The translations under genes and the position numbers were made by a program. DNA of 63,961 bases, counting the filler, from Stramenopiles sp. TOSAG23-2 (lineage: Eukaryota), in assembly GCA_900128395.1 (NCBI GenBank). It is 3 parts of 3 records of this genome, joined end to end, with 100 filler letters (N's around TTAATTAATTAA, not from the genome) between each part and the next. Parts side by side here need not be neighbours in the genome. Positions count along the whole stretch, not along the records: positions 1 to 22,227 come from LT649517.1; 2 more parts are not named here. One strand, 5' to 3'. Below, piece after piece: positions 1 through 44,651 of the stretch; within the stretch, counting starts at the first letter, position 1; each line of letters opens with the position of its first letter. A model generated the notes under the pieces. That model was not told the DNA's origin and made no database searches. It worked only from the letters and a program-made list of their open reading frames with translations.

Positions 1-1
1 T

Positions 2-271
2 TCACAAAATAAATGTGATGAAGCATTAGAATATTATAATAAATCATTAGATATTAAAATAAATAAATTAGGTAAAGATCATACTAGTGTTGCATTGACA
101 TATTATAACATTGGTATATTTCATAAAAATAAATCTAAAAAATACAAAGAAGCATTGGAATGTTTCAACAAGTCGTACAATATATACAACAATAAACTAG
201 GTGATGATCATCGAGACACAAAAGATGCTATAAGAATGATACAAATATGTAAAAATCGATTAGGAATGTAA
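2..271 (+). CDS. 3' end of a kinesin-light-chain-type (42-aa) TPR repeat protein, 5'-truncated at the window edge
   Basis: Manual translation of frame 2: SQNKCDEALEYYNKSLDIKINKLGKDHTSVALTYYNIG...KEALECFNKSYNIYNNKLGDDHRDT...RLGM*. Matches the TPR_12-type consensus (A-x-x-Y-x-N-[IL]-G...EALEYY-x-KSL-x-I...LG-x-DH). Missing from the ORF track. Confidence 0.9.
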   Translation, partial: SQNKCDEALEYYNKSLDIKINKLGKDHTSVALTYYNIGIFHKNKSKKYKEALECFNKSYNIYNNKLGDDHRDTKDAIRMIQICKNRLGM

Positions 272-556
272 AAAGTAGTTCGTCCTTTTCCCCTGTGTGT
301 GTCTAAAAGTGATAAAATATATATATAGGTATAATATCTCTCTTTAGTATACATACAAGTACAAGCTCCATCCCCTCAACTTAAACACACATATATCCAT
401 AGTGAATACACTTATATATATATCTAGAAAGACGACCTGCGCTAAGAGAGAATTGACTAAGACAGAGTGATATCAATCATATTAATATTGAGACTCAATA
501 TATATCATCCACATCAGTCATCATCGTTGTATAAATAATATTTATTTTATTACGAT

Positions 557-752
557 ATATAATATATCTGATCGTGTCGAATATTATACATTTGTAAATA
601 TTCTAACATTTTGTTTTAATTATTCATTTTTATAAATTTTAGAATTATTTAAAAATATAATATATCTGATCGTGTCGAATATTATACATTTGTAAATATT
701 CTAACATTTTGTTTTAATTATTCATTTTTATAAATTTTAGAATTATTTAAAA
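557..752. repeat. Exact tandem duplication, 98-bp unit
   Basis: ATATAATATATCTGATCGTGTCGAA... occurs at ~557 and ~655. Confidence 0.9.
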
Positions 753-984
753 TAAAAAATAACGTTCATTTTTTATCAATAATTCAGTTAAAAAAATAGA
801 ATTTAATTTATTATTTATTAGACAAAACAAAAACAAACAAACAATAACGCAACTACTATTTCACGAATTATAAGAATAAATTTATTAATCAACGCCCATC
901 TTCCTTTACAGTTATATAAAGACAACCACTATTAACTGTTAAATACCAACAACAAATATATAACAAAAATATAATAAAAAAAAG

Positions 985-1749
985 ATGTGCCGTTGGTATT
1001 GTACATCTACAGGACCAAATACAAATTTACAATGTTTATGGTGTGGTGTTTATTATTGTGGTGCTTGTTTACATGGTGAATATGGCAAAATGAAAAGTCT
1101 AGTACGTTGTGCTCATTGTAATAAAAATCCAAGAAGTTTGCCAGATCGTATGCGTGGCAATTGGAAAACATTATCGATGGAAACATATGATCCACGTGTA
1201 GTAAATGCTAGGCGTACGATACAAGAAAATCGTAATGAACAAGTCAAAGTGGATCTACGTCATCAACGACGTATGAGTGGTGGTATGACACAACCTCCAT
1301 TAAAAAAAATATTACCACGTCGTCGAAAATCTGTCATGGTAACAGTCTCTTTATTTGATGATGATGATGATGATGACAACAACAACGACGACGAAGATGA
1401 TGATAATATAGAACAAAAGCAACAACAACATGATATTGTAAATAAAAATAATATATTGCAAACGAATACTAATAATAATCAATTAAAAGATGATACAGAA
1501 GATTATGGTACCAATAGAAGTAGAAGTGGTAGCGTAACATGGTGCGAAGATGAAAGTAACATCCAATTAGGCAATCATCGTCGTCAATCCGTATGGGATC
1601 GTTTAACAAATGTACATTTATACCCAGTGAATCATTTAAGACGTTTTGATAAAAATTTTGACCGTGGCATTGGTATCCACAATGCCGAAGCACATCCTTC
1701 AATATCACCAACACAAGTTAATAATCAACAAGGAGGTAATGGGGAATAA
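985..1749 (+). CDS. Hypothetical protein: N-terminal Cys-rich zinc-finger-like region and C-terminal partial p25alpha-like motif
   Basis: CxxC clusters (CRWYC, CLWC, CGAC, CAHC), a D/N low-complexity linker, and SVWDRLTNVHLYPVNHLRRFD..RGIG resembling the partial p25alpha consensus. Confidence 0.65.
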   Translation: MCRWYCTSTGPNTNLQCLWCGVYYCGACLHGEYGKMKSLVRCAHCNKNPRSLPDRMRGNWKTLSMETYDPRVVNARRTIQENRNEQVKVDLRHQRRMSGGMTQPPLKKILPRRRKSVMVTVSLFDDDDDDDNNNDDEDDDNIEQKQQQHDIVNKNNILQTNTNNNQLKDDTEDYGTNRSRSGSVTWCEDESNIQLGNHRRQSVWDRLTNVHLYPVNHLRRFDKNFDRGIGIHNAEAHPSISPTQVNNQQGGNGE

Positions 1750-1959
1750 TATAAATAGAGATCTAATAAATGTAGAAAATGGAGTCGCAGAGTCGTGAGG
1801 GAAAAAGTCAAGGGGCGAGGAGAGTCGAGAGGAACGTACGCTTCGTATAATTATAATATATAATCGTATTTTAGATATGTTAAAACGCAGAGGGACTATA
1901 CTCGCGTTTCTTTCTCTCTTACACCCCACCACCCACCACTCTCCCGCGCCCTATTATAT

Positions 1960-3410
1960 TCATATCGTCCGTTTATGCAATACACTAGCACCAATCTCTT
2001 CATATTCTTCCTTTGTGACCCACATTGATTTAAATGCAGCTAAACTTGCTAATATACTACCACCCATCCAAGTCAAAAATTGTCTATTTGGTGGTGCGCT
2101 GATTTTAATTTTAACATCCTGAATATATATAATATATTTAATATTATTGTTAGTATAATGTGTAAAAGAGTAAAAGGATGTGGCATATATATAGATAGAT
2201 ATAGATACATACCGCACATTGTGATGCTTGAGCTAAACTCTTAATTTCCTTTAACAATCTATCACCATATCCAGTAAACATTGTGGATCCACCAGCTAAT
2301 ACAATATCACTAAATAATTTTTTACGTAAATCCATATCCGATTTAAAGATAGCATTGCCTAAACATTGATGTACACCACCATATTCCGTACCAATAATGC
2401 TTGGACTAAATAATATTTCTGGTGCACGGAAGCATTCTGGTCCTATTTTAATTAATTTACCATCTGGTAATTTATATTCTTTAATTTCAGTATTATTATC
2501 CCGTTCAATTTCTTCCTCACGTATTGGATTAAATGCAACATAACATACATTTTCTTTAATATTACGTACAATTTCACGTTCCGCTGTTGTATGAAAAACA
2601 TATCCAGCACGACGTAATAAACGTTGTAAATATTCCGTTACGTCCTGTGTAAATATAAATAGATAGATAGAGGATGGGTATGAATATGTTAGTTTTTTTT
2701 TCTTTTGTTTTAATATATCAATCGACATGGAATATATGATGATAGATTGTGAATATCGTGTTACACTTACACGACCTGCAACATCCATTCTTGTTATAGC
2801 ATGTGGCATGGAAAATCCTTCATATACAGGGACTGCATGTGTGACACCATCACCACTATCTAATACAACACCAGTTGTACGACCACTTGAATATAAACTA
2901 AGTGTTGCTTGCGGTGATACAAACAATGCTGGTGTACCAAATGTTTCAAAGAATACTTCTGCTGATTTCTCACGATTACGTCTTGGATTTAATGGTGCCT
3001 CTGTTAATAATACAGGATGTTCCTCGGATGAGACACCTAAATTATTTTTTTCATATAAACTAGCCCATATTTTTTCCATATCTGCCCAATTGGTTACCAT
3101 ACCATGTTCCATTGGGTATGCTAATTTCATAATTCCACGATGTTCATCCGCTTCATTTCCTATAAATATATCACCTTCAATACGTGATTGTACCATCACT
3201 CGTGAATGTTTTGGTCGTCCAACAAATGCATAAAAAACACATTTAGGTTTATCATGCCTGTGTATGAATGAGTTATATATGTTAGAGAGGATATATCTTT
3301 TTTTTTAATTGTAAGAGAAGAGAATTTATTACGTACCCTCCAAATCCTGCTTTCATTACACCTGTACCATTATCTATTACAATTGGTTGATTTAATGTAG
3401 TTGTATTCAT
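1960..3410 (-). CDS. ACTR1: Actin-related protein 1 (centractin, dynactin), 4 exons
   Basis: Exons 3410-3337, 3257-2771, 2644-2213, 2118-1960, with GT-AG introns 3336-3258, 2770-2645, 2212-2119. The spliced product begins [25 protein letters not shown] and contains [26 protein letters not shown] and GDRLLKE, all Arp1-type signatures. Confidence 0.92.
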
Positions 3411-3535
3411 GTTTTATTTTTTTTTTTAAAATCAATCAATTATTGTATAATTTTTGTAATTTATAGTTGTAAAATTCTTAGATTTTAGTTTTTGTATTTT
3501 ATTTTTGGATACGTAAGAGATATCGATACATAGAA

Positions 3536-4306
3536 TTGATGATGAATATTCTTACACCATCGTCGTCATCAACAACAACATCATCACCATCATTATCAGC
3601 AAATGTCATCACCAACACCAACACCACTGTAAATAATAATACAGCTATATTGAATACATTTGCTCAAATTAATACCTCCAAACAATGGACAACATTATCT
3701 GCTTTTATCAATAAATTCAATAAAAAAATTAAGAAGAAGAAACATTTAAAAGCATTAACAACACGTGAAGCTGGGTATATATTACTATCTACTGACCCGA
3801 ATGTTTTGAAAACGTTTGGTATATGGATCACATCATTTGGTAAAAAGTTTATGCCAATTGTCATCACGAATCCTGCACATTATCGATATTATCAACAACA
3901 AAACAACATGAAAAATATAAATAATAAAAATAGAAATGGAAATAGAAATACTAATACTACCAATAATTGTAATAATAATAATGCAAGAAAGAAGAATCAT
4001 CATCAACTATTACTAAATGAAAATCATAATAACGACAACAATCATACCAATCGTAATACAAAGAATGTAATAAACGGTGACAATAATAATTTCATAACAT
4101 GCACATGTGCTGGAAAAAAACCATCTTCCTCTACACAACAACAACATGATCAAAATAGAAAATTTTATGAAAGTCACGATTACAACGCTGGAAGGCATTT
4201 CAGTACGCAATCCCAACATAAAGCAAATTGTTTATTATGGTCACCACCAACATCAGGGCATTTGCATTCATGGCGACGTGGGTATGAAGATGATGGAAAG
4301 AAGTAA
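3536..4306 (+). CDS. Hypothetical Asn-rich protein, possibly with further Cys/His-rich 3' exons up to ~4640
   Basis: 256-codon ORF divergent from ARP1, with host-like low-complexity composition. A possible intron starts near 4303 but I could not resolve the downstream exons. Confidence 0.5.
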   Translation: MMMNILTPSSSSTTTSSPSLSANVITNTNTTVNNNTAILNTFAQINTSKQWTTLSAFINKFNKKIKKKKHLKALTTREAGYILLSTDPNVLKTFGIWITSFGKKFMPIVITNPAHYRYYQQQNNMKNINNKNRNGNRNTNTTNNCNNNNARKKNHHQLLLNENHNNDNNHTNRNTKNVINGDNNNFITCTCAGKKPSSSTQQQHDQNRKFYESHDYNAGRHFSTQSQHKANCLLWSPPTSGHLHSWRRGYEDDGKK

Positions 4307-4815
4307 TGTGAAAGTTGTTACTTGATATATATGTATGTAGATCGGCTGTATATGTTTGGAACAAGAGGGTTATAGGGTGCACATTATCGCATACTAGAAG
4401 CGAATTGCACTTTTGCTCACACAATGCAAGTAGATGCATCCAAATGTAAAGTCAACAACATATATAATGGTCCAATAATTGTGAAGCATGTATACCAGTC
4501 TGTCATGTGTGATCTGTGAAAAAGGAAAGTAAAACGAGGCGTAGGGGGTGGAAGAACTCCATAAGATTCCATTGTATGCACAATAAGAGAATGTGCATCA
4601 GTATTTCATCCCTACCGAATGTATCCCGTGTGTATAAATTAAAAATATAGTTTTCTTAAGTCTCTTTCGTCTTGTTTATTTTATACAACAAAGTCCATTT
4701 GAATTATAGTGTTTCCCTTTCCCTTTCCCTTCAGTATATAATAATGAAATAAATATCAATATACACCTTTGCGTTTTACACATTATACAACAAAAATATA
4801 CAAATCGCATACACC

Positions 4816-6510
4816 ATGAATTACTTAGAAGGCATATCGTTTGTCCCAACAACAAATGAAACACGACGTGAAAAAAAATCAAAGAAAAAGAAGAAGAAAA
4901 AGAAAAAAAAACATAAAAAGAAAATAATTAATAATAATTTAAATGTAAATTTAAATAATAGTAGTAGTGGGGAATCCAACGATGAAGATAATAATATAAA
5001 TCAAGAGAAGCAACTATATCATATAACAAAACAACCACCACCACAAACATTATCCTTTGACGAATTATTAGCAAAAGCAAATGGTACCGCTCCAATATCA
5101 TCCATCTCTTCGCAACCACCACAAACATTATCCTTTGAAGAATTATTAGCAAAAGCAAAAGATGATAACAATCCTATTAATAATAATAATAATATAAATT
5201 CAACAAGAATATCACCAATTATTAGTAGTCGAAGAAACAATATACGTAAACATGAATCCATTCAACCATCGAAATTAGATCCAAACAAAGCAGCAGCAGA
5301 AGCAATAAAACGTCAATTATTAGGGTTAGAACCAACCAATACACCAACCAACGAAGAATACAATGACGATGCACCTCCTGCTACCAATAATCCAATGAAT
5401 AATCCACGTTTATTTAAAAAACGTAAAGCAGAATTAATTGAACAACGAAAATTACATCATTTGAATCATGGTAATAATCGACAACAACAGAAAAACAACA
5501 ACATGAAAACAAACAGCATGATGTCAAATCGATTTCATAAAGAAGGTGAAACATTTGATCCAGCAAATGCACGTGGTACTAGTATATCAAGTAATACGAC
5601 AAGTTCCGATCTGGATTCAATTTTCATTAAAAATGTTTTAAAACGTGGTAAACGATTTAAAGGTTTAATGATGGAAACTGGTGGTACTGGTGATCAATCC
5701 ACTGAACTTGATATGAGTTTATTTACAGATAATCGTACAAATTCACAAAAACAAAATGCTATACGTAGCAATGCAGGTAGAAATCAACAACGATATAATC
5801 AAATAGTGCAACATGATCAATATAATATTAACAATAACCGTTTCCCTAAACATTTAATCATATCAATGAATCAATATGCATATTTAATGTTACCAAGGAA
5901 CAAACCAATTACGAATGGACATTGTTTAATAGTTCCATTGCAACCAATTAAAAGCATGACGCAAGCGGATAATGATTTAAATAATGAGATTGCAAATTAT
6001 AAACATAGTTTATTACAAATGTTTCATCATGAAAAACGTTCATGTATCTTTCTTGAAACAGTCATGAATATCAATCGTTCACATCATACATTAATACATT
6101 GTATACCAATTGAGGATGACATTGCAGAGGAATCACCAATACATTTTCAACAAGCGATCTTAAATTCAGATACAGAATGGAGTTCACATAAAAAAATCAT
6201 TAATACAAGTCATGCAAATCATATTAATCAAGCTATACCACCAAATTTTTCTTACTTTCATGTTGAAATATGCCATGTTAAGAAACCGAAAGTTGGATAT
6301 GGACATATAATTGAAGATGCAAAGAAATTTAGTCCATATTTTGGACAGGATGTTGTTAATGATTTACTTGGTAATCCCCCATCACGTTTTGGTAGAAAGG
6401 AAGATAAACGTTTGAATTTCAATGCGCAGCGTGAGTTAGTCATTAAATTTAAACAAAGTTATTGTAAATATGATGTTGTGGGTGAGGAGAAGAAGAAAGG
6501 GGGAGATTGA
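4816..6510 (+). CDS. CWF19L2: CWF19-like protein 2 (CwfJ C-terminal domains; spliceosome-associated)
   Basis: C-terminal HLIIS..YAYLMLP..GHCLIVP..CIFLET..HTLIHCIP..FQQAI..EWSSHKK..IPPNFSYFHV..GYGHIIED, plus a KKKKKHKK N-terminus typical of the family. Confidence 0.88.
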   Translation: MNYLEGISFVPTTNETRREKKSKKKKKKKKKKHKKKIINNNLNVNLNNSSSGESNDEDNNINQEKQLYHITKQPPPQTLSFDELLAKANGTAPISSISSQPPQTLSFEELLAKAKDDNNPINNNNNINSTRISPIISSRRNNIRKHESIQPSKLDPNKAAAEAIKRQLLGLEPTNTPTNEEYNDDAPPATNNPMNNPRLFKKRKAELIEQRKLHHLNHGNNRQQQKNNNMKTNSMMSNRFHKEGETFDPANARGTSISSNTTSSDLDSIFIKNVLKRGKRFKGLMMETGGTGDQSTELDMSLFTDNRTNSQKQNAIRSNAGRNQQRYNQIVQHDQYNINNNRFPKHLIISMNQYAYLMLPRNKPITNGHCLIVPLQPIKSMTQADNDLNNEIANYKHSLLQMFHHEKRSCIFLETVMNINRSHHTLIHCIPIEDDIAEESPIHFQQAILNSDTEWSSHKKIINTSHANHINQAIPPNFSYFHVEICHVKKPKVGYGHIIEDAKKFSPYFGQDVVNDLLGNPPSRFGRKEDKRLNFNAQRELVIKFKQSYCKYDVVGEEKKKGGD

Positions 6511-6666
6511 TGTTATATTAGGGAGTGTGATATGAGAGTATGGTTAAAGGCTAGACTGCGCAGTTATTGTAAATATGATGTTGTGGGTGAGGAGAAGAAG
6601 AAAGGGGGAGATTGATGTTATATTAGGGAGTGTGATATGAGAGTATGGTTAAAGGCTAGACTGCGC
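6457..6666. repeat. Exact tandem duplication, 105-bp unit (spans the CWF19L2 stop)
   Basis: AGTTATTGTAAATATGATG... occurs at 6457 and 6562. Confidence 0.92.
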
Positions 6667-6867
6667 TCTATACTAGAGGCGTTAGCGAGGAGGGAGGAAA
6701 AGTCGAAAGGTCGAAAAGTCTAAAAGGCATATATGATATAAAACATTAACACTCTTATTTAATCATACATAATAATATCAATTTTAGTATTTTTATATTG
6801 GAAAAAAAATGTGTTTTTTTTTTTATAAACTATAAACTCTCAAAACACTTGCAAAAAACACACAGTA

Positions 6868-7091
6868 AATGACAAATCTCTTGACATTATTACAATGGCA
6901 ATACATTTTTAACGAATGACGACACCATCCTTCACAAATGTAATATACCACACACACAATGCAACAATGTATTATACACAATGACAAATCTCTTGACATT
7001 ATTACAATGGCAATACATTTTTAACGAATGACGACACCATCCTTCACAAATGTAATATACCACACACACAATGCAACAATGTATTATACAC
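6868..7091. repeat. Exact tandem duplication, 112-bp unit
   Basis: AATGACAAATCTCTTGAC... occurs at 6868 and 6980. Confidence 0.92.
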
Positions 7092-7156
7092 GATACACGA
7101 TACACGTCGATAATATTTTAGGTAATCAATGTTCCATCACATATCATCATATTCCT

Positions 7157-8443
7157 TCAAAGTTTACTACTATTATTAACACCCAATTCAATTGGCAATT
7201 GACAACGTACCATCATTTTCCCCGTATTTTTACTTTCAAACAACCCATACAATGCATTTGGAAGCTGATCAAACCCATCAACAATAGTATATTGATCAAT
7301 TATTTTTTTCTCCATTAACCATTTACTTAATTGTTGATTTGCATCAGCAAATTGTTCCATGGTAAAACTCAATGGGTCAGTAATATACCCTTGAAATGTT
7401 AAACGTTTAGCAACGATATGGAATAAATTTCTTACACCATAACGTTTTTCAACAGGTTGATCATATCCACTAATGGAACCACATGCAATGATCCGTCCAA
7501 AATCATTCATTACTTCCAATGCACTTTCAAGTATTTCACCACCAACATTATCAAAATAAATATCTAAACCATTTGGTGCTAAACGTAATAATGCATCTAA
7601 TGGTTTTTCCATTTTATAATTAAATGCATGTACACCAATACTTTCTAATAATTGAATTTTTTCTGGTGTCGATGCACATCCAATGACGGTACAACCTAAT
7701 AATGGTTTTTCCATTTTATAATTAAATGCATGTACACCAATACTTTCTAATAATTGAATTTTTTCTGGTGTCGATGCACATCCAATGACGGTACAACCTA
7801 ATAATTTTAACACTTGCTATATATATATATACGAGTATGTATTTTCATTGTGTTAGATTCTGTAACAATTGTTCAATTTATATAAGGATTAATAACTTAC
7901 AACAGCACAAAATCCAGTTGCACCAGCTGCACCAGATACAAATGCCACTTCACCTTCTTTTGGTTTTCCAATATGTTTAATAGGCAAATACGATGCATTG
8001 CCCGTTCCACCCAGCACGGACATGTATGATTCGACTGGTATGGACGTATCTAATTTTTGTACTTTTGAACTTTTAAAAACATTAAATCGTCTCCAATATC
8101 CACGTGTTGATACACAATCCCCAACTTTAAAATTGGCATCTTTACTATGTAAGATATATCCAATAATTCGACCTGAACCTGGGTTATTTGTTTTCCAATT
8201 CATCATTTGATAATATGTATTTGTATTTTCTTTTTCAGTAAGACCAAGTGTGGAACCTACCATTGCATTTCTCATGGTAGGATCTACTGAAAATAAATAC
8301 GATGCAACAACTACTTCATTTTCATTTAACATATCTTTTGTTGGCATATCGATATTATTCACTTGAAAACATTCTGTCATATTATTTTCATTTCCATTTG
8401 GACGTTTTGTAAATAACACTTCTTGGTTGGTATGAGTACTCAT
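7157..8443 (-). CDS. NADP-dependent MDR oxidoreductase (prostaglandin reductase/2-alkenal reductase family), 2 exons, PTS1
   Basis: SVDPTMR, VSGAAGATG, YFDNVGG and GKMMV motifs. Intron 7900-7817 (GTAAGT..ATAG) joins GFCAV|QVLKLLGC in frame. Ends in -SKL. Contains a 102-bp in-frame duplication. Confidence 0.9.
7598..7801. repeat. Exact tandem duplication, 102-bp unit, in frame inside the MDR reductase
   Basis: Duplicates LLGCTVIGCASTPEKIQLLESIGVHAFNYKMEKP. Confidence 0.95.
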
Positions 8444-8570
8444 TATAAATTGATGATTATTTTTAAGATTTAAGATATATATATATATATAGAGAGAGTG
8501 TGTGATTATAAATTGATGATTATTTTTAAGATTTTAAGATATATATATATAGAGAGAGTGTGTGTGTGAT
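8442..8570. repeat. Imperfect ~63-bp tandem duplication differing in TA/TG microsatellite length
   Basis: ATTATAAATTGATGATTATTTTTAAGA..(TA)n GAGAGAG (TG)n occurs twice. Confidence 0.8.
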
Positions 8571-8723
8571 TATAAATTGTGATTGTTTAATATATATATA
8601 TATATATCGTGTGTACGTCTTAAGGTTTTGGTTTGGCTATTTGTATGTATTCCGTGTGTTATGTGTGATTGTTTAAAAAGATACAGAGGGGGGTCATATT
8701 ATAGTTCCTGGTTCGTTTTTTAT

Positions 8724-8986
8724 ATGGGTGGCGAATGGCCACTTGTACTTTATGTAGACTAATTACTAATGATTAACTATATAATACGATGTGATGCTAT
8801 GTCATGCTACTGGAAAGAGTGAGACCCCATTTTCCAATAGTGTATCGATATAATTTATTGATGTTTTTTAGCCCATCCTGTGTGTCTGGTACGGCCAATT
8901 TTGAACTTAGCATGGAATAGCATTACTAATGGTGTGTATATGCTAGCAAATTGTAGTGAGTGCTGTGTCATGCTATCTCGTGGCCA
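8724..8986 (+). ncRNA. Candidate structured RNA or foldback element (unclassified)
   Basis: Three hand-folded hairpins (8726-8744, 8804-8843, 8908-8975) whose non-Watson-Crick pairs are mostly G-U on the + strand. No match to snRNA or tRNA motifs I know. Confidence 0.35.
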
Positions 8987-9346
8987 TTATTTGACCATTT
9001 TCTGCCCCCTATAGGAATAGTTGCAGAGTTGGACGGAATATAGAAAAGGAGAGCAAAAAATCAAGTCTGAAAAAAGTGTTGACTCAAATGCAGACGACCT
9101 TATACTTAGGGACGACACTACGACACTTAAGACCACACGCACTTGAGTGTTGAGAAAAAAGAAGGGTTGTAGAGACGTTTTATATATATATATAAACGTT
9201 GAGGCAGCAACGGACTAAATAGATTACATATAATATATGTGGTGGTTCCTCACTCGGCCCACTCGCGCCTCGCCATCTTTCTCGCTTTCTCTCCCCTCTC
9301 TTTTTTCTCCTCCTCCGGTCGTCGTACATCTCCATAAATATATTTG

Positions 9347-9945
9347 TTAAAACTGCAAATTATCATAATCGGACATTCGTATTCCATCCCTAGTGCCTAA
9401 TCCATACATATTTTTAATAAATTCATCTGCTCCATTTGCAATCAAAAACGATGCACTTACAGGGTCATTGCGAGCAAAGATGTAATGTAATGCTGTATTT
9501 CCTTCATAATTCTGCGCATCAAGTAGTTGTTTTCCGCCACGAGCTATAAGCATATGTAATAAATCAATATCATCTATTTTTGCTGCTTCTATTAAAAGCG
9601 TATCTCCCGCTTCATTTCTTGTTAAAATATCTGAACCTGCATCTAACATTGCTTTTAATGCTCCTAATTTCTTCGTACGTATCATCTTAAATAGAATATC
9701 TGACATATTGCCTAAACGTGCGGAAAGTAATGCCTTTGTTGTTTTATCTTTTTTCTTAGATAACGTATGGTTTACAGCTTCTGTTCCATTTAAATTTGCC
9801 TTGTGCATACCCGTTGTGATAGCATCCATTGAAGAACTACTACCATTATCATTTACATTCATATTAACACTGGAAGGGGCTGTGGATATATCATCATTTG
9901 TAGACATTTTATCCATATTGTTATTATCGCCATTGTTGTAACTAC

Positions 9946-9984
<39 letters not shown>

Positions 9985-12900
9985 TCTTTTCCTCGTCTTC
10001 CCCTGTTGCATAAAACGTATATGCCGCTTCAGCAGCTTTGTTGACCTGATCTTTATGACCACTAGAGCTTCTTTTTCTATCCGCAAGTCTACGTTTTAAA
10101 TTTTCACGCTGTCGATCTTTCTCCCGTATTAAACGATCTTTTAAAGTTGCGACTTCACTAGTTACATGTGTATTAATCATAGAAAGTTGGTTTTGTTGAG
10201 AAATTTCATTGTCGTTCGTGTTTAATGTTCCTTTCTTATTATCATCTTCTTCAAGCTTTCGTTTCAATATTTCTCGTTGTCGTCTTCGTTCTGCTTGCAA
10301 TTTGACTTTTAATACTTCGACATCACCTTCATGACTTTCTCTTAAATCTCGTATTGTTGATGCGGTTGAATCTTCTGAGTCACTTCCATGCAACGGTGTT
10401 TTAGAAAATTTCTCTCTCATCTCATCCAACGCTTTTGCTTTTATTGTTCGTATCCTCATCTCGGCATCTTTTTTATGCAATGGCGGTAATTCAGCAACCC
10501 GTCGTTGCTTCATGTACAATGGGTCGATTACCATTTCACCCTCTTCATCATGCATCGTATCTTTACTATCCTCGTCATCATATAATGGTGTAATTTCAAT
10601 CTCCGTTTTTGGAATTTGACCACCATCGGTTATACTACCAGTTATTCCAGGTGTTAATGGCATCGGATTGTTGTTTCCATCAGCAGTTGAAATCATTGAT
10701 CCATCTTGTGGCGTATAGACAGGGCCGTATAATGGCGTAGTAGGACCAGTTGAAATATCATCATTATAAGTCAAATTTGGTGGATTGTCATATCCAGGTG
10801 TCAATGGTGATTGGTAAATATGCGACCCAGGACCATAATTAGGTGTTATTGGGCCCATGTATCCGGGCGTTGTTGGCCCATACATAGTTTTAACAAGTGA
10901 TGATTGTAATCCTGGCTCTTCCTCTTGTGGTGTTTCTGGCACAGATTCCCCTCGCTGCTCCCATAATTCTTGTAAAGGCGTTCCGATTTCTTTATAACGT
11001 TCTTCATCATCCATAATTATTTCATTATTGTCATCTTCATGTTGTTGTTGTTGATGATGATGATGATGATGATGATTCATCTGATCTTCCTCGTTATCAT
11101 ATTGCCCATCGTTTTCAATATGGCCTATGTATTCATCGTTCATATTATTTCCATCGTCCTTTTCTGGTGAGTTCATTGCTATTGGATATTGATCATCTGG
11201 AATATACATTAATGATTTTCCAATATCTTGGTCTTCATTTTCATTTTGATAATTATTGTTGCTGTTATTATTATTCATCTTATGCTCGTGTGCTTGGCGA
11301 TCTATATCTACGTGGTGCATATTATTATTATCATCATCATTACCTCTACCACCTCCGATATTATGCCGTACCCCAGTATTGTCGATAGAAAGTAGATTGA
11401 TATTAGTAGTAGAATCTTTATTATTAGCAATTCGTTTCCGGCGTTTGTCTTTTTTAAGTTTCAATTCATGCCTCAACACAGATGATTCTTCAGCAGCTTC
11501 AGAGCCTATATTAATAAATGCAGTGAGTGATTTTCGCAAATGACGTTTTCGTTCCAACGATTGTGTTCTTACATCCATATGCCTGCCAATTAAAAAATTT
11601 GCAACAGCACCATCGTATGAATCTTTTCCAACCGCACGGTCAGCTTCTACAGCTGCTTGCTTCCATTTCCTATGTGCTAAAACAACACTACCAGCCACCC
11701 AATGAGAAACCCCTTCGAAGATTAAATATCGTGATATACCAACACCAAACCATTGCAAAAATTCTTTAACTAGTCTTGTAACATCAGCTGTTACTGTTTC
11801 TGAGGACCATGGAATACCAGGATCAACATCTGCACCTTTGCAGAATCCCAATGTGTTTTTTTCCCCTTTTTTATTACGCATTGAAAATGGGCCAAATAAA
11901 CTTGCAAAAACATTTGCGCAGCATACAAAATTCTCTAATAAAATAGTAACTTTATTGTTGGAACCATTGTTTTCATTTAAAATATCATCAATACCACTAC
12001 TCGTGAAGTTTTTTGCTAAACCATTTGCACCATCGGCGGAATAGACACGCAATAGACCTCGAATATCTGCCAATTGGCCCAAGACAAGGACACAGACAAC
12101 TTTTCTCAACGAGGCGTCATGGCGCAATTCATCTGGTAGAATCGAAGTTAAGAAGGACGATGGCTTAAGTATTTTTCGCTTCGTTTTTCCACCATTTGCT
12201 TTTGTTTTTTTAAATGGAACAAATTTAGTCGCCGGTTTCGGTGGATAACGTCGTTTTTTCTTTTTAAATTTGTCACTGAAAGGGTTCTTACTTTTCCGCA
12301 TTCGTCTATTTTTCTTCTTTCGCCGCTTCTTATTATACGCAGGCTCCCCAAAAGGAAGATTTCTATCTTGTGCTGGGGATGAAGCATCAAATTCACCACT
12401 TGCTGAGTTCCATGGAACTTTTTTCGGTGATCTTTTAATATTTTTTGCATCTTCTAAACGAAACTCGCGTGCACCAGCACCTCTCGCTTCCAACAAAGGG
12501 ATTATTTTGTCATACCTAGATTCAATCGTAGTTGTTACTTGAGATCCAAATGTAGATGGTTCTTTTTCTTTCACAATGCGCTTTCTTATTTTTTTCTTTT
12601 TCTTTTTATTCCCATCAATATTTGTACCGTCTTTCGTCTTCGTATTTAATATTGGGTATGATTTTTCGCGTTGTCGTAGAAGACTAGCTCTAGTTGGAGA
12701 TAAATAATCTTCCGCCAGTTTCCCAGAATTTGTTACTGGTATCAACGGGACACTTTGTGATGATTGAAATGTTGTACTTATCTTACCCTGTGATGTTAAG
12801 TTGCCTAAATATGGTTGATCTTCGTCATCGTCTGCATCATTATAGCCACCACTTATAAGCGGCTCCTCTTCATCATCATCGTCCTTATCAACATTGCGAG

Positions 12901-15800
12901 GCAATGTTGGCGGTGCAAGGCCTTCAACTAATGTCCATCCTTTCCTTCTTGTCCCAACCGTAACTGGGGGTGGTATTGTTGGCGCCTTGCGCATAAATGA
13001 ATCAAATGATCGTGGATTAGCAATTAATGGTTCATCATCATCATCTGATGAGGAAATATCACCGCCAAACATATTACGAGGTGGTAAATCAGATGCTTCC
13101 CACGCAGTAGAAGGCCCTGAGACGTATTGATTAAACATTCCATTAGGAGGCAATTGACCTCTTACATGTTGTTTTCTATTTAATTTTTTAGCCTTTTGCT
13201 TTACAAAATCTGCATTTCGCATTGAAGGGGCATCCGTTGGCACCCCGACTGATCGAGCCTTGGTATATGCCTTGTTTAATTCTTCCACTTTTTCTTTAGA
13301 TACCCCTAATCCACGAGCAACATTAGTTTCTATATCCATACAAACTTTATTCAAAATATTTTGATGTTCTTCTCTTTTTTCACGTTTACGGACCATTTGA
13401 CGGTGGCGTTCAACAGCAGATATTGGTTGTGGCAACCTTTTGTCTAATTTCACACCGTCCACAATAGCTTTCATTTGTTGCTCTAGTCTCGATTCGTCCA
13501 ATGGACGAATTACCACAGCATTAACTGGCGCTTGGCCTTTCACGACTTTTCCACGGTCATCTACTACGCAACCTGCATCTTTCAATCTCCCAATATCACG
13601 TTTACGTAATTGCAATCGATTGTACACTAAATAACACTCCCGGCATACCGTTATTTGAGAATACTTTAAACTGGCTGGAACGTTGGTATTTTGCCTTAAG
13701 GAGTTGATAAAATAGGGCATACCTGGCAAATTATTGAATTCTCGTGACTGATCCATTTCCTCCCTATCCAAATCACGCATTATATCATTGTATTTATTAA
13801 ATTCCTCCGTTTCCATTTCTTTTCGTAATTTTCGGCGTTCATCCACTTCGTTTTCATAACGTTGAATGACAAATCGTTGACTATATGAATATGTATTTGG
13901 ATTATTGGTATCTGATATTTTCAATCTCCACATATTGCCACGAACATGTGCCTTTAATCCATTATATATATTTTTTGGAATATCAAACGTATAGGTGCCA
14001 TCATTTTTAGTTGACATGACAACATCAAAGACTTTATCAAAACCAGCAAATAATTGAATTTTTGTACATGGAACGACACCGGCCCATTCCCATAAGCATC
14101 GCACAGTTCGCCCAACTGTATATTTTGATGTACGACTTGGAGCTGTTACATACAGCCAAGGGCCATCGCCGCGACGTTTTTGAGACCTATCTGTTAAATA
14201 CCATTTCGCCAAATTGTCTGACATGTATTGCATGTCTACTCTGGCATTCGCAATAAGACGAAACGCTAATGGGTATGTACTTTGTTTATCATTTTTTGAC
14301 AATGATTTAAATCTAGACTTTGTGTTACTCTTTTTTTCCCGCCTTCTTGTTGAAGCGGTTGACGATGCTGTAGAACCTGTGGATGATGGCCTTTGCGTTT
14401 GTGGGCTTGCTTGTCTCAAGTTTCGTTTCATTTGAGATGTTTCAAGATTTTCTTGTACCTCAGCAACCAATGCTATTTTATGTTTTTCTCTTAATTCTTG
14501 AACTTGTTTATTTGTTTTATTAAATTCTTTCTTCATAGCACTGTCTCTTGTCCACCGTACATATTTTTGTTTCTTTTGAGGTGACGATGAACGTGGCCGT
14601 GGCATCATTTCCTCTTCATCTTCATCGTCGCTTTTAACATTTTTATCTCTATACCCACAAAAATCACCATGACATTGTTTTCGGTGAACTTTGACAATAT
14701 TATCATTTCTATTGAATACATTTTTTTTTCTTTCTTCTCTTACGTCTTTTACTTTCAAAAATATTTTGTTGATCATCTGTGTGTAATTCATGATCACGCG
14801 TGTGAAATTGCAATGCTCGATTATTCGTAGTTGCTAATCGTCTCCCTGCCTCTGCATTTGCCTTATGTCCAAGTATGTTATCTGGCTTGTTTTCATAATT
14901 AACTCTAATCCGCCGTGGCAATGTGGGTGGTGAATTTGCATGCCTTTTGCCATTGCTATATACTTGTTTGTCTGGATCATTGTATATATTTACTTCCAGT
15001 GCTTTGATAAATACTGGTTTTCCATCAGTATTTATGCTATACTCTCCTGTAAATTTAGTTACGACTACTTTTCGTCGATGTTGTATCGCTTGTATTATTC
15101 TATGCGTCATTTCATCCAATGAATTATTAAAAGTTCGATTCATATTCAACACACGTTTTAAACTTTGCTGAACGTTTGATAAGATAATATTTGAATTTGT
15201 TTTCGTATTCACAGGTTCCATTACATTTTCCATAATTCTACGAATTCTATACGTTGATGTAGATACGACACCCCTAACATTGGATGGGTTTGGTGCTTGG
15301 TATGTATTATGGTACAGCAACTCATCGCCGGTTCGAGAGATGGTTTTAAATTGTATTAAGGATGTGCTATATCGTTGGGATGCAGTATGACTACTACATA
15401 TTTTATTCAAAAGTTGTAAATCAATTTCTGTTTCTTCAGACTTGTTATTATTTTTATTACCTTTACTACTATTATCGTCTTGGCTACCTTTTCCGTACAA
15501 TGTTGCTACAGTTGATGATAAATCAGTTGCTCGTGCCATTGCCATCTGTTGTTTACCATGCAAACTTTGAAAACGTTGTAATAATAACTCATAGGTAGAT
15601 TTTTTTGAAGTACGTTTTAATATTGTACCTATTTTAGACGTAAATAACCACATTTTAATATGACCACGTTCATCTAACCTTACCGTTTCTGCAATATCGA
15701 TTTTTAACTTTGCCTTTGATTTAGGTTTCCATAATGTATCCCATACCCACACATTATTTTTTTTTATCTCACTTTCATGTGTTGAATTACCCACAAACAT
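9347..15800 (-). CDS. Large (~2150 aa) low-complexity protein with C-terminal ankyrin repeats, split by a 1-nt frameshift near 14721-14729
   Basis: ORFs 14709-15800 and 9347-14797 overlap at an A9 run. GDTLLIEAA and GNTALHY ankyrin motifs lie at the C-terminus, with internal CHGDFC and VCRECY motifs and TPGY-like repeats. Confidence 0.75.
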
Positions 15801-19625: not shown

Positions 19626-21033
19626 TTACCAACCACTACTACTGTCATTTGCGAAATTGATATTTTTTCTTAACGCTGACATGGCAGCAGATGTACCACC
19701 ACGGCTTCTTAAACCACTTTTACTAGATGTGGATAAACCTGATTCACTACTAGCATCACCATCTATCAAGTCGGTGTTAGATTTCTTTCCTTTTTTATTA
19801 GTAGTTTTTTTCTTTTTTTTATTTGCTTTGATAGGATTGATCAATACATCATATTCATCTAGATATTCAATGAAATCAAACGTTTCATCTTTCGCAACTA
19901 CATAATTTCTAGATATAATTTGTTCATCCGTGGTATTATGGCTAGTGTTGTTGTTATTATTGAATTTTTCTGCTGCAGCACGTTCAACATGGCCTTCTTC
20001 ATGAACATTAATAGCAGAAATGGTAATATTAAATTGTTTAATAATTTCCGATTTTGGAGCTTGATTCATTTTTTCCATATCTCCACCACTAAATGTTAAA
20101 CATGCAACTGATAATATAACAGCCAATGCTTAATAATTTCCGATTTTGGAGCTTGATTCATTTTTTCCATATCTCCACCACTAAATGTTAAACATGCAAC
20201 TGATAATATAACAGCCAATGCAGACACTCTATTTTCATCTAGGGAACTATATAATTTCATTAAAGGCCATTTCCCACGATTATCTAATTCTTTAAATACC
20301 TCTGCAGTAGTGACACGTCGTTTCTTTTTGATATTTTGTCTTTTTTTCTTTCTCTTCATGCCATCACCACGATCAAAATCATCATCATCATCATCGTCGT
20401 ACATGCTACTATTATTATTACTCATTGAAAAATCAAATAATTTTTTAATATCATTAATATTAAAACCTTCCTCTTCTTCTAACTTTTCTTTTGCATGTTT
20501 AACATGCCAAAGTCGATATAAATGTATCAAGTATTCAATAAATATACGAAGAATTCTACTTGGTATTTTGTATACATGAAAATCACGATGTAATTTTTCC
20601 AATGGTGTTTGATTTAATAATTTTTCCTTTTCCACTTTTTCCTCTTTCGTCAATCGTTTAAACCTTGGAAATTTTCTACCAGCTATTTCTCCCAATACTT
20701 TTTGTTGAAAATCACGATGTAATTTTTCCAATGGTGTTTGATTTAATAATTTTTCCTTTTCCACTTTTTCCTCTTTCGTCAATCGTTTAAACCTTGGAAA
20801 TTTTCTACCAGCTATTTCTCCCAATACTTTTTGTAACTCTTCTTTTTTTTGTTTATTCAATTCTTTTGAAAATTTAGATATAACTGGTGATGAAATAAGT
20901 CTTTGAAATCCTCAATGGATTCCACACCGAAATCATCCATTTTTTCACATAACATATTCAATATTTCATCTTTGGACGTAACATTTTCTTTTAAACAATC
21001 TCGTACAATATTTTCCGTCGTTAAACTTGCCAT
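19626..21033 (-). CDS. Hypothetical protein broken by two tandem duplications and a 1-nt frameshift (likely assembly errors)
   Basis: ATG at 21033 reads MASLTTENIVRDCLKE...EDFKDL, then the frame shifts near 20890 into SSPVISKFSKELNKQ. Duplications of 129 bp and 92 bp explain the two overlapping ORFs in the track. Confidence 0.6.
20038..20221. repeat. Exact tandem duplication, 92-bp unit (frameshifting)
   Basis: TTAATAATTTCCGATTTTGGAGC... occurs at 20038 and 20130. Confidence 0.92.
20577..20834. repeat. Exact tandem duplication, 129-bp unit (in frame)
   Basis: TGAAAATCACGATGTAA... occurs at 20577 and 20706. Confidence 0.92.
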
Positions 21034-21053: not shown

Positions 21054-21262
21054 TTTCTTGTTGTGGTTGTTCGTTTTTTTTCTATACTTATACACTTTTG
21101 TGAAAAATAAAAAAAAAAATTATACTTGTTAGTTTCTGATTTTTTGATTCTTACACTTTCTTGTTGTGGTTGTTCGTTTTTTTTCTATACTTATACACTT
21201 TTGTGAAAAATAAAAAAAAAAATTATACTTGTTAGTTTCTGATTTTTTGATTCTTACACTTT
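21054..21262. repeat. Exact tandem duplication, 103-bp unit
   Basis: TTTCTTGTTGTGGTTGTTCG... occurs twice. Confidence 0.9.
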
Positions 21263-21639
21263 TGTAAAAAAAAATAAAAAAAAATACTTTTGTTGCTGTT
21301 TTCTGTTTTGTTTTTTCGTGATTCTTACGGTTTTGTTACTTAAATTTGTTGTTTTGTTTGTTGTTTTGTTGTTTCTCTCTTTCAATTATGTTTGTCATCG
21401 ACACATGATGGATCGCCACATTACAAAAGTGTGTTCACATTCCCCCACCTTCTTTTTATTTTATAGTTTGAGATGATCCTTCCTCCTTTCGATTTGGATA
21501 TCCTGACCAACATGGCGTTCGGATCAAAGGTAATGCTATTCGTACGCTAAATGTAGAATTTCTGGGGAACAAAACGTGTTGGTTGACGTATTAGTATATG
21601 TACATATAAGTTATAATTCCTATCAATATGATATATATG

Positions 21640-21781
21640 GATATTTCTATCATATATTTTTAATATTTTCATTTGTTTTTTGGAATTTCGGATATAGCTT
21701 AATTATAATCGATATTTCTATCATATATTTTTAATATTTTCATTTGTTTTTTGGAATTTCGGATATAGCTTAATTATAATC
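21640..21781. repeat. Exact tandem duplication, 71-bp unit
   Basis: GATATTTCTATCATATA... occurs at 21640 and 21711. Confidence 0.9.
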
Positions 21782-21872
21782 TAGGGAATATGAAAATAAG
21801 GAGTATGATGTACTTGTTTGCTTTTTTGTATACTAAAGAGAGATATTATACCTATAACAATTTATATATATT

Positions 21873-22226
21873 TTATATTTTATCTGTACAAAATTGGATT
21901 CTTCCATCGAAATATGCATCGTATTGTCCATTATGTGATTTAGTGTATATAGGTTTTGCTTTTTGATAATATTCCAATGCAGCTTTATAATTGTGAAGGT
22001 TTTCTTCGTTTAAATTACCTAAATTCATATATGTTTGTGCAACACTAGTATGATCTTTACCTAATTTATTTATACGAATATCTAATGATTTATTATAATA
22101 TTCTAATGCTTCATCATATTTATTTTGTGATTTATAAACATTTGCTATATTATTATATGATGCTGCAACATCAGTATGATCTTTACCTAATTTATTTATA
22201 TAAATATCTAATGATTTATTATAATA
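21873..22226 (-). CDS. 3' end of a second 42-aa TPR repeat protein, 5'-truncated at the contig end
   Basis: Manual translation: YYNKSLDIYINKLGKDHTDVAASYNNIANVYKSQNKYDEALEYYNKSLDIRINKLGKDHTSVAQTYMNLG...KAALEYYQKA...TDKI*. Shows a 126-bp periodicity and is nearly identical to 2-110. Confidence 0.9.
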   Translation of the reverse strand, partial: YYNKSLDIYINKLGKDHTDVAASYNNIANVYKSQNKYDEALEYYNKSLDIRINKLGKDHTSVAQTYMNLGNLNEENLHNYKAALEYYQKAKPIYTKSHNGQYDAYFDGRIQFCTDKI

Positions 22227-22227
22227 T

Positions 22228-22327
22228 NNNNNNNNNNNNNNNNNNNNNNNNNNNNNNNNNNNNNNNNNNNNTTAATTAATTAANNNNNNNNNNNNNNNNN
22301 NNNNNNNNNNNNNNNNNNNNNNNNNNN
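22228..22327. other. Artificial contig linker (44 N + TTAATTAATTAA + 44 N)
   Basis: N runs flank a six-frame stop cassette. Confidence 0.99.
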
Positions 22328-44551: not shown

Positions 44552-44651
44552 NNNNNNNNNNNNNNNNNNNNNNNNNNNNNNNNNNNNNNNNNNNNTTAAT
44601 TAATTAANNNNNNNNNNNNNNNNNNNNNNNNNNNNNNNNNNNNNNNNNNNN
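44552..44651. other. Artificial contig linker (44 N + TTAATTAATTAA + 44 N)
   Basis: Identical to the first linker. Confidence 0.99.

Follow-up and report, generated by a model that had tools for sequence, protein, structure and literature searches.

A probable diversifying ligand-recognition family of tetratricopeptide repeat proteins in the uncultured marine protist Stramenopiles sp. TOSAG23-2

Some recognition receptors, such as immune-type proteins of fungi, change at a few surface residues on an otherwise homogeneous repeat array. Here we describe such a pattern in a 63,961-nucleotide (nt) stretch of DNA from the uncultured marine protist Stramenopiles sp. TOSAG23-2 (assembly GCA_900128395.1; hereafter, the window), which carries the 3′ ends of two genes built of tetratricopeptide repeat (TPR) units: gene 1 at 2–271 on the plus strand and gene 2 at 21873–22226 on the minus strand. 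The two loci are almost certainly the C-terminal ends of paralogous members of a lineage-restricted multigene family with the repeat anatomy described below. Concerted evolution of its units, coupled with diversifying selection on the groove of the TPR array, is strongly favoured by our comparisons. The explanation that we find the most convincing overall, and hold to be probable, is a diversifying ligand-recognition TPR family with a receptor-plus-effector architecture that lacks a nucleotide-binding oligomerization domain (NOD).

Results

Two paralogous gene ends built of TPR units

Both gene ends translate without interruption up to their own stop codons, at 269–271 in gene 1 and at 21873–21875 in gene 2. 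They lie convergently at the two ends of the first contig of the window (1–22227), which starts and stops within TPR units, and their 5′ parts are lost beyond it, at the window start for gene 1 and at a linker gap for gene 2. Both loci are built of 42-residue TPR units of the kinesin-light-chain type, matching Pfam TPR_12 (115 bits for gene 2 and 52.3 bits for gene 1; cut-off 30.1) and TPR_10 (72.9 and 38.9 bits, respectively; cut-off 27.5). With the register set to start at the Tyr or Cys preceding DEAL, each unit comprises 42 codons or 126 nt. Gene 1 then consists of a unit with a canonical helix B and a ‘pre-tail A’ helix A, followed by a diverged capping unit that ends in tail type A. Gene 2 consists of a partial canonical unit, then a unit that joins a canonical helix B to a ‘pre-tail B’ helix A, and finally tail type B.

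The concern raised in a first-pass annotation of this DNA, that the two loci might be a single misassembled gene, can be set aside. The two ends have their own stop codons and different tails, and each tail recurs in independent public sequences: in protein P0072 and contig L015 for gene 1, and in protein P0061 and contigs L001–L004 for gene 2. The tail of gene 1 shares 73% identity with the C-terminus of P0072 (847 residues) and 94.5% nt identity with L015. The fragment of gene 2 shares 75% identity over 100% of its length with P0061 (798 residues), and 91–92% protein identity and 94–95% nt identity with L001–L004. As the likeness of these contigs to the window ends about 90 nt or less past the stop codon, L001–L004 and L015 represent paralogous or otherwise different loci.

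A nucleotide-identical scaffold with a few variable codons

The three units that can be compared within the window had been described as a nucleotide-identical scaffold bearing hypervariable codons at fixed sites. The 39-nt stretch quoted in support occurs exactly at 17–55 (plus strand) and 22077–22115 (minus strand), and none of 100 shuffled sequences gave a match. Over codons 1–27, pairs of window units show no synonymous differences (0 in 27, 21 and 21 codons compared), as had been claimed, and each pair shows two non-synonymous differences, of which one, two and two are multi-base. The identical scaffold among the window units covers the first 81 nt of the unit only; over codons 28–42, the three units differ at 10–12 of 15 codons. 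They represent three helix-A subtypes, namely canonical, pre-tail A and pre-tail B.

This affects how the four proposed sites are read. Two of them, with codons AAA/CGT/TAT and AGT/AGT/GAT, behave as described. The other two, TTG/CAA/GCA and TAT/ATG/AAT (sites 28 and 31), compare subtypes and not variants on an identical scaffold, because the units that carry them are of different helix-A subtypes. Of the pre-tail-B units, taken from five sources, four have Gln at site 28 and all five have Met at site 31, and sites 15 and 25 vary freely. The window itself contains only about 1.5 canonical units.

In gene 1, the hypervariable codon of site 15 (AAA) lies at 56–58, and sites 25 and 28 lie at 86–88 and 95–97, all on the plus strand. 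The hypervariable codons of gene 2, placed by codon register and site variability, span 22035–22202 on the minus strand. Its partial unit carries site 15 at 22202–22200, site 25 at 22172–22170, site 28 at 22163–22161, site 35 at 22142–22140 and sites 38–39 at 22133–22128; its second unit carries site 15 at 22076–22074, site 25 at 22046–22044 and site 28 at 22037–22035.

A larger set of units was obtained by scanning metagenome contigs with the gene 2 peptide. The scan matched 352 stretches, 91 of which encode a relative, and the best 80 were kept; these 80 loci and the window were scored against a 42-residue template (at least 60% identity), giving 29 units. Two inverted-copy units of the palindromic contig L005 and two units from the distant L008 and L009 were dropped, leaving 25 distinct units; for the divergence statistics, L028 was left out as well (24 units). 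L005 (3874 nt) has 1008 nt of perfect inverted identity at both ends, each bearing the same TPR gene end, and is probably a hairpin chimera of whole-genome amplification.

Across the 25 units, the scaffold codons are nearly invariant at the DNA level, with the same codon in all 25 units at nine positions, for example. Amino-acid entropy exceeds 2 bits at sites 15, 25, 28, 35, 38, 39 and 41, and site 15 takes six different residues. Among canonical units the variable sites are 15, 25, 28, 35, 38 and 39, sites 31 and 41 varying mainly between subtypes. Across the 13 canonical units, nt identity falls from 96.4% outside these six codons to 52.7% within, and the pattern of an identical scaffold with a few variable codons also holds for the helix A of canonical units in this larger set. 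The seven units of L007 (294 residues) have a mean pairwise identity of 84.2% at the protein level (range 74–93%) and 90% at the DNA level.

Low scaffold divergence and diversified codons

By the Nei–Gojobori method, the scaffold of the canonical units has a proportion of synonymous differences (pS) of 0.047 and of non-synonymous differences (pN) of 0.033, and pN reaches 0.54 at sites 15, 25, 28, 35, 38 and 39. Bootstrapping over units gives ranges of 0.014–0.075 for pS and 0.39–0.58 for pN. Cross-validation was used so that the choice of sites is not circular: sites set in the seven L007 units (15, 28, 35, 38 and 39) give a pN of 0.60 in the six other canonical units against a scaffold pS of 0.020, and the reverse procedure gives a pN of 0.54 against a scaffold pS of 0.069. 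With 25 units instead of three, then, variation is still concentrated in few codons, where non-synonymous divergence far exceeds the synonymous divergence of the scaffold, as the first-pass annotation had supposed.

Codon bias is strong in these genes (about 80–90% for two-fold codons) yet insufficient to explain the silent uniformity of the scaffold. A non-major synonymous codon is found in 5 of 451 scaffold codons, where 112 are expected from the codon usage of the family’s N-terminal regions and 139 from that of two other genes in the window, and some of the codons fixed in the scaffold are minor ones (ACT for Thr, for instance). The non-repeat parts of L003, L006 and L007 have a pS of 0.10–0.15. 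Since the repeats, even when compared across genes, are less silently diverged than the rest of the genes, homogenisation by gene conversion or unequal crossing-over is needed, and not only a recent origin.

Up to 8–10 different codons occur at a single variable site. At sites 25, 35 and 39, single-base steps link every codon variant; at sites 15, 28 and 38, the variants form two, four and three groups, the largest of which holds most variants at sites 15 and 38. Substitutions at the variable codons touch all four bases (for example G>A 15, A>G 11, A>T 11, T>A 9 and G>T 8) and are not adenine-specific, as they would be in the targets of diversity-generating retroelements (DGRs). Much of this variation could be explained by ordinary point mutation combined with selection and recombination. 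No Pfam match to a reverse transcriptase was found among the 21 window open reading frames (ORFs) scanned, which are a subset of all ORFs, and no search was made for a template repeat.

Most variable codons map to the predicted groove of a TPR solenoid

The Pfam TPR_1 alignment of the gene 2 peptide is ungapped, pairing residues 21–50 with profile positions 1–30. It places sites 28, 31, 35, 38 and 39 at TPR positions 2, 5, 9, 12 and 13, and the conserved Tyr, Ile, Gly/Ala, Tyr, Ala and Tyr residues at signature positions 4, 7, 8, 11, 20 and 24. In the available text of Magliery and Regan (PMC1261162), TPR positions 2, 5, 9, 12, 13, 33 and 34 vary most, all of them on the concave face, and they include ligand contacts of HOP TPR1 and TPR2A. 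Four of the six variable sites, at TPR positions 2, 9, 12 and 13, thus fall on the concave face, where clustering had been expected; ‘concave’ here denotes the profile mapping combined with the literature. Site 15 corresponds to TPR position 31, at the end of helix B. Site 25, two residues before position 1, would be the equivalent of position 33 in a 34-residue repeat.

The solenoid itself was checked on P0124, a 599-residue relative, and not on the window fragments. Its AlphaFold model, computed from the single sequence, has a mean predicted local distance difference test score (pLDDT) of 83.7, and above 90 over the array. The model contains regular helix pairs of 19 and 16 residues, with helix B at unit positions 1–19 and helix A at 24–39, and these antiparallel pairs are predicted to stack into a TPR solenoid. 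Foldseek matched the model to the TPR domains of OGT, consensus-TPR proteins and KLC1/2, with E values from 1e-10 to 3e-14.

Different heads without a nucleotide-binding module

Relatives of the window genes share one array anatomy, in which three or four diverged ‘anchor’ TPRs are combined with near-identical canonical units, variable in number, a last unit that is subtype-specific, and either of the two tails. An orphan head of about 590 residues precedes the array in P0061, P0072, P0008 and L001 (P0123). It had no Pfam match above the cut-off, and 7249 candidates yielded only six relatives, of which three belong to a protist proteome collection. All seven orphan-head sequences begin with Met1-Gly2, an invariance that suggests N-myristoylation as a possible modification. 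An AlphaFold model of this head from a seven-row alignment is poor (mean pLDDT 53.9), and an Atlas lead to a plant cluster of ARM_7/TPR type was discarded because its score of 0.75 is below the meaningful level.

L003, L006 and L007 (P0124) carry a RING/U-box-like finger as the head, which in P0124 matches zf-Nse (29.8 bits; cut-off 27) and zf-RING_UBOX (28.0 bits; cut-off 25.2). A third kind of head, a putative TIR domain, is seen in P0031, the eighth close relative and a gene model truncated at both ends, which matches TIR_2 over profile positions 27–111 of 122 with 28.1 bits against a cut-off of 28.

The first-pass annotation had looked to NB-ARC- or NACHT-type architectures, and this expectation was not borne out. 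Such a module is absent from the seven closest full-length relatives seen whole (P0061, P0072, P0008, P0123, P0124 and the ORFs of L003 and L006), which have a RING/U-box-like or orphan head instead, followed by the repeats with no space for an intervening NTPase. NB-ARC and NACHT domains were likewise missing from the Pfam scans of P0061, P0072, P0008 and residues 1–258 of P0124, and from the precomputed domain lists of the first three of these proteins. The distant matches P0003 and P0050 do carry NB-ARC/NACHT, but share only the generic repeat. Twelve pattern matches in viral contigs included none that encodes a relative, and the PADLOC defence profiles gave a match to the generic ‘TPR’ model only.

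Probable exchange of modules and change in unit number

Each tail is found on genes with the orphan head and on genes with the RING-like head, so that all four combinations occur. In the 63-codon anchor region, pS is 0.08–0.15 between genes with unrelated heads and 0.075–0.20 between genes with the same head. The mixing of tails with heads and the likeness of the anchors irrespective of the head both point to a recent exchange of the TPR cassette.

L006 and L007 are orthologous loci with collinear flanks (91.7% identity over 3067 nt and 94.9% over 5694 nt). The length difference between the two arrays is 627 nt or about five units, a count to be read with the fact that short-read assemblies can collapse repeats. 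Unit-number polymorphism and recombination of modules, both expected of a repeat-shuffling family, are thus seen. The units are contiguous and in frame within uninterrupted ORFs of 385–891 codons and do not form separate exons. The neighbourhood of the RING-like TPR gene is kept in the two assemblies, where it lies between a 295-codon ORF and a 1514–1535-codon ORF (725–1612 and 3335–7879 in L006; 2508–3395 and 5705–10312 in L007).

Recurrence in public sequencing runs

Part of window positions 1–10000 is present in 20 of 24 listed public runs from 11 studies, comprising marine metagenomes, small (single-cell-size) runs of three coded organisms, and marine poly(A) metatranscriptomes. We placed Logan contigs from two small runs (X1 and X3), a seawater metagenome (X2) and a poly(A) RNA run (X16) on window positions 1–420 at 80% likeness, obtaining 37, 49, 207 and 6 contigs, respectively. 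In X1, X3 and X2, the summed depth of the canonical part is about 20–90 times that of the unique tail, a rough ratio and not a copy number.

Over positions 1–126, depth-weighted differences among the rows listed are found only at 61 and at site 15 (56–58), where CGT is the usual change. Contigs break off just ahead of variable codons, at 82 and 94, and past these points their loose ends have different codons at site 28 and then the same helix-A scaffold. Joints that lead back at intervals of 126 nt place further units ahead of the window’s first unit, and contigs in X1 and X3 continue upstream. The six poly(A) metatranscriptome contigs have 90–99% identity; some family member, not necessarily either of the two window genes, may be transcribed.

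A shared 3′ flank

Beyond the stop codon of gene 1, a block at 272–363 (plus strand) is common to the paralogues, the likeness to L015 and L005 stopping at about 363–364. It contains a 26-nt motif at 328–353 (plus strand), with a second copy at 21827–21852 (minus strand), 20 nt past the stop codon of gene 2. The motif also occurs in L015 (329–354) and twice in L005 (465–490 and 3385–3410), and it lies 20–60 nt past the stop codons of family genes bearing either tail; L006, L007 and L013 have degenerate copies after their stop codons. Its 12-nt core occurs only twice in the window, and 1 of 100 shuffles reached two matches. Homology between paralogues stops about 10 nt beyond the motif, which may mark the end of a transcribed or duplicated unit. 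A 3′ untranslated region intron at this place, considered as the core resembles a splice acceptor, was dropped because RNA contigs have no joint there.

Other features of the window

The window consists of three contigs joined by two identical spacers at 22228–22327 and 44552–44651, each with 44 N on either side of a 12-nt linker that has stops in every frame; we infer that they serve as contig joiners. At the first, the contig breaks off within the TPR array. Outside the TPR genes, the window is eukaryotic, rich in AT and poor in introns, with very long ORFs, and encodes cadherin, teneurin-type EGF, discoidin and lectin domains together with a GH20 hexosaminidase, an actin-family and a CwfJ-type protein. 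The CwfJ-type protein has a 99% identical match in an unnamed protein; its named matches, from plants, animals and a fungus, have only 25–38% identity. Three unbroken ORFs of 4019, 3452 and 2532 codons, at 22336–34395 (plus), 34186–44544 (minus) and 44738–52336 (plus), encode multi-domain surface-type proteins, which are notable in a unicellular marine eukaryote. Among the domains of these proteins are many cadherin repeats, Laminin_G_3, SUEL lectin, discoidin, WSC, TIG, ILEI and dozens of teneurin-type EGF repeats. The first two of these ORFs are cut by the spacers.

On the minus strand, an ORF of 1816 codons with C-terminal ankyrin repeats (9347–14797) overlaps the end of a 363-codon ORF in a different frame (14709–15800), and a short intron or a frameshift within a single gene may account for the two. 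Eight tandem duplications of 2.0–2.1 copies with periods of 71–129 nt, seven of them 100% matched and one 97%, lie at 557–752, 6457–6666, 6868–7091, 7598–7805, 20038–20221, 20577–20834, 21054–21262 and 21632–21781, several inside ORFs. They look like untrimmed contig-merge overlaps, artefacts that would corrupt gene models.

Discussion

We propose that frequent unequal crossing-over or gene conversion between units homogenises the scaffold, and that the same recombination would alter the number of units and move the cassette and tails between genes. Variants that arise by point mutation at groove positions would be retained by selection for diversity. The TPR array would then act as a diversifying ligand-recognition module, and the N-terminal heads (TIR, RING/U-box-like, or the orphan all-helical domain with its invariant Met-Gly start) as output modules. 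Such a NOD-less receptor-plus-effector architecture would most plausibly serve non-self recognition, for example of viruses, parasites or prey. A role as recognition receptors is probable for these proteins. That the role is specifically immune, as architecture and evolutionary pattern might suggest, is a more tentative step, and one we would not press. Viral or parasitic ligands are plausible given the TIR head and the conflict-type evolution.

The closest parallels come from the NOD-like receptors (NLRs) of fungi. In the available text of Dyrka et al. (2014, PMC4986451), the TPR, ankyrin (ANK) and WD repeats of these proteins are described as highly conserved, with repeat-number polymorphism and positively selected concave sites, a pattern read as concerted evolution with positive or diversifying selection. 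High internal conservation is defined there as more than 85% identity between repeats over at least 100 residues, and only 0.4–1.2% of repeats in plants, metazoans and dikarya qualify. Like the fungal NLRs covered by that text, among them Podospora HET-E/HNWD, the present family has 42-residue units of TPR_10/12 type in one continuous ORF, near-identical to one another, with differences in unit number, a few variable concave positions and combinatorial pairing of heads and repeats. It differs in having no NACHT or NB-ARC domain between head and repeats in the seven whole relatives, with RING/U-box-like, orphan or (truncated) TIR heads; in its host, an uncultured marine protist; and in a mean unit identity of 84%, just below the 85% threshold. 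By this comparison, it is best regarded as a version, lacking a NOD, of the arrays with high internal conservation that fungal NLRs carry.

Other systems share part of this anatomy. The NB-ARC-TPR genes of Ectocarpus, as presented in the available text of Zambounis et al. (2012, PMC3341825), are likewise built of 42-residue units that are shuffled among members, with diversifying selection acting on the TPR domain. In Ectocarpus, however, each exon holds one repeat and exons are shuffled, whereas the units described here are contiguous and in frame without introns between them, and there is no NB-ARC. The best structural matches, KLC1/2, have 28–34% identity and a target TM score of 0.59–0.77, and consensus TPR (CTPR) proteins have 33–36% identity; both bind ligands in the concave groove, and the same groove is proposed for the present family. 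KLC is nonetheless a single conserved housekeeping gene with diverged repeats, in contrast to a multigene family with homogenised units and a hypervariable groove. Bacterial and metagenomic proteins in which TPR_12 repeats are linked to CHAT, NB-ARC or TIR domains resemble the family in their modular head-plus-TPR arrangement and in repeats of 40–55% identity, but share only the generic repeat and none of the family’s anchor TPRs, tails or heads. A literature search found no description of this TPR family in marine protists; the supplementary tables of PMC4986451 and PMC3341825, which lay outside the search, may hold related cases.

Several observations weigh against a diversifying recognition family. 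Sites 15 and 25 lie outside the classical groove positions. The variable sites of helix A span a 140-degree arc that 320 of 4368 site subsets (7.3%) match or better, which is weak when taken alone (161 of 8008 subsets, or 2.0%, when site 31 is included). They also coincide with the positions that are least conserved in TPRs generally, so location alone is no proof of selection, and the case for diversifying selection rests on a pN far above pS by counting methods. On the architectural side, the whole relatives lack a NOD module, the TIR match sits at its threshold in a truncated gene model, and the heads are known from relatives only, the 5′ parts of both window genes lying beyond the contig ends. 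The identity of the canonical units falls just short of the fungal criterion. The 25 units come from several assemblies, probably of several strains or species, and mix paralogy with orthology; all sources are short-read or single-cell assemblies in which unit order and number may be chimeric or collapsed, and merge artefacts are present in the window’s own assembly. Finally, RNA support is thin, as the six metatranscriptome contigs may derive from other family members.

The most serious rival accepts the same diversifying family and gives it targets other than pathogens: the proteins could be adaptors in ubiquitination or membrane trafficking, allorecognition or mating-type factors, or receptors for prey in a phagotroph. 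A RING/U-box-like head fits an E3 ligase that selects its substrates, the invariant Met-Gly start of the orphan head suggests membrane anchoring, and the closest solved folds are the cargo- or substrate-binding TPRs of KLC1/2, OGT and APPBP2. The seven close relatives seen whole have no NB-ARC or NACHT, and the best-studied fungal cases of this repeat pattern act in allorecognition, according to the available text of PMC4986451. A TIR head, diversifying selection and changes in unit number are, on the other hand, more typical of conflict-driven systems. We regard this alternative as unlikely but far from negligible; endogenous or allorecognition targets remain a serious rival, and the present evidence does not tell the kinds of target apart.

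A neutral origin is considerably less probable. If the family were the product of very recent tandem or dispersed duplication, its variable codons would be unconstrained surface positions, in keeping with their generally low conservation in TPRs and with the single-base linkage of all variants at three of the six sites (25, 35 and 39). Unconstrained codons should, however, diverge at about the synonymous rate, and a scaffold pS of about 0.05 stands against a pN of 0.54–0.60; moreover, the repeats are less synonymously diverged than the non-repeat parts, which requires homogenisation.

Two further explanations are very improbable. Collapsed or chimeric repeats could yield a false consensus scaffold with scattered variants, and contigs do break inside units (at the window start, at the end of the first contig and in L002, L004, L005 and L013–L015), L005 is palindromic and the window carries many exact 2.0-copy duplications of 71–129 nt; yet the same scaffold and variable places recur in two single-cell-size runs, a seawater metagenome, a poly(A) RNA run and at least four accession prefixes, the units stay in frame in ORFs of 385–891 codons, and collapse cannot create in-frame multi-base variants at one codon in every source. 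Equally remote is a dedicated mutagenic or cassette-exchange mechanism, either DGR-like or by somatic recombination as proposed for Ectocarpus: the restriction of variation to a few codons of an otherwise invariant template is suggestive, and scattered partial units and paralogues could be donors, but all four bases change and not adenines only, single-base linkage at half of the sites fits ordinary point mutation, and the scanned subset of 21 window ORFs has no reverse transcriptase in Pfam.

A diversifying ligand-recognition family thus remains the explanation that we prefer. Arrays that are homogeneous in DNA and carry diversifying groove residues are a known hallmark of fast-evolving fungal recognition receptors, and finding this regime in an uncultured marine eukaryote extends the strategy to a wider phylogenetic range. 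The architecture would be a minimal ‘sensor plus effector’, with swappable TIR, RING/U-box-like and orphan heads and without a NOD module. The family also explains a practical problem, in that its TPR units break short-read and single-cell assemblies at fixed places. The genes may shape virus–host or predator–prey interactions in the ocean plankton. It is conceivable, although somewhat doubtful at present, that an uncultured and widely distributed lineage of marine protists runs a NOD-less innate recognition system, in which a homogenised, rapidly recombining TPR cassette with a hypervariable groove is mounted on interchangeable output heads (a TIR domain, a ligase of RING/U-box type and an orphan domain anchored in the membrane) and dozens of copies exchange units and tails. 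If true, this would be an independent invention of the strategy of fungi and brown algae, and a natural source of programmable TPR binders.

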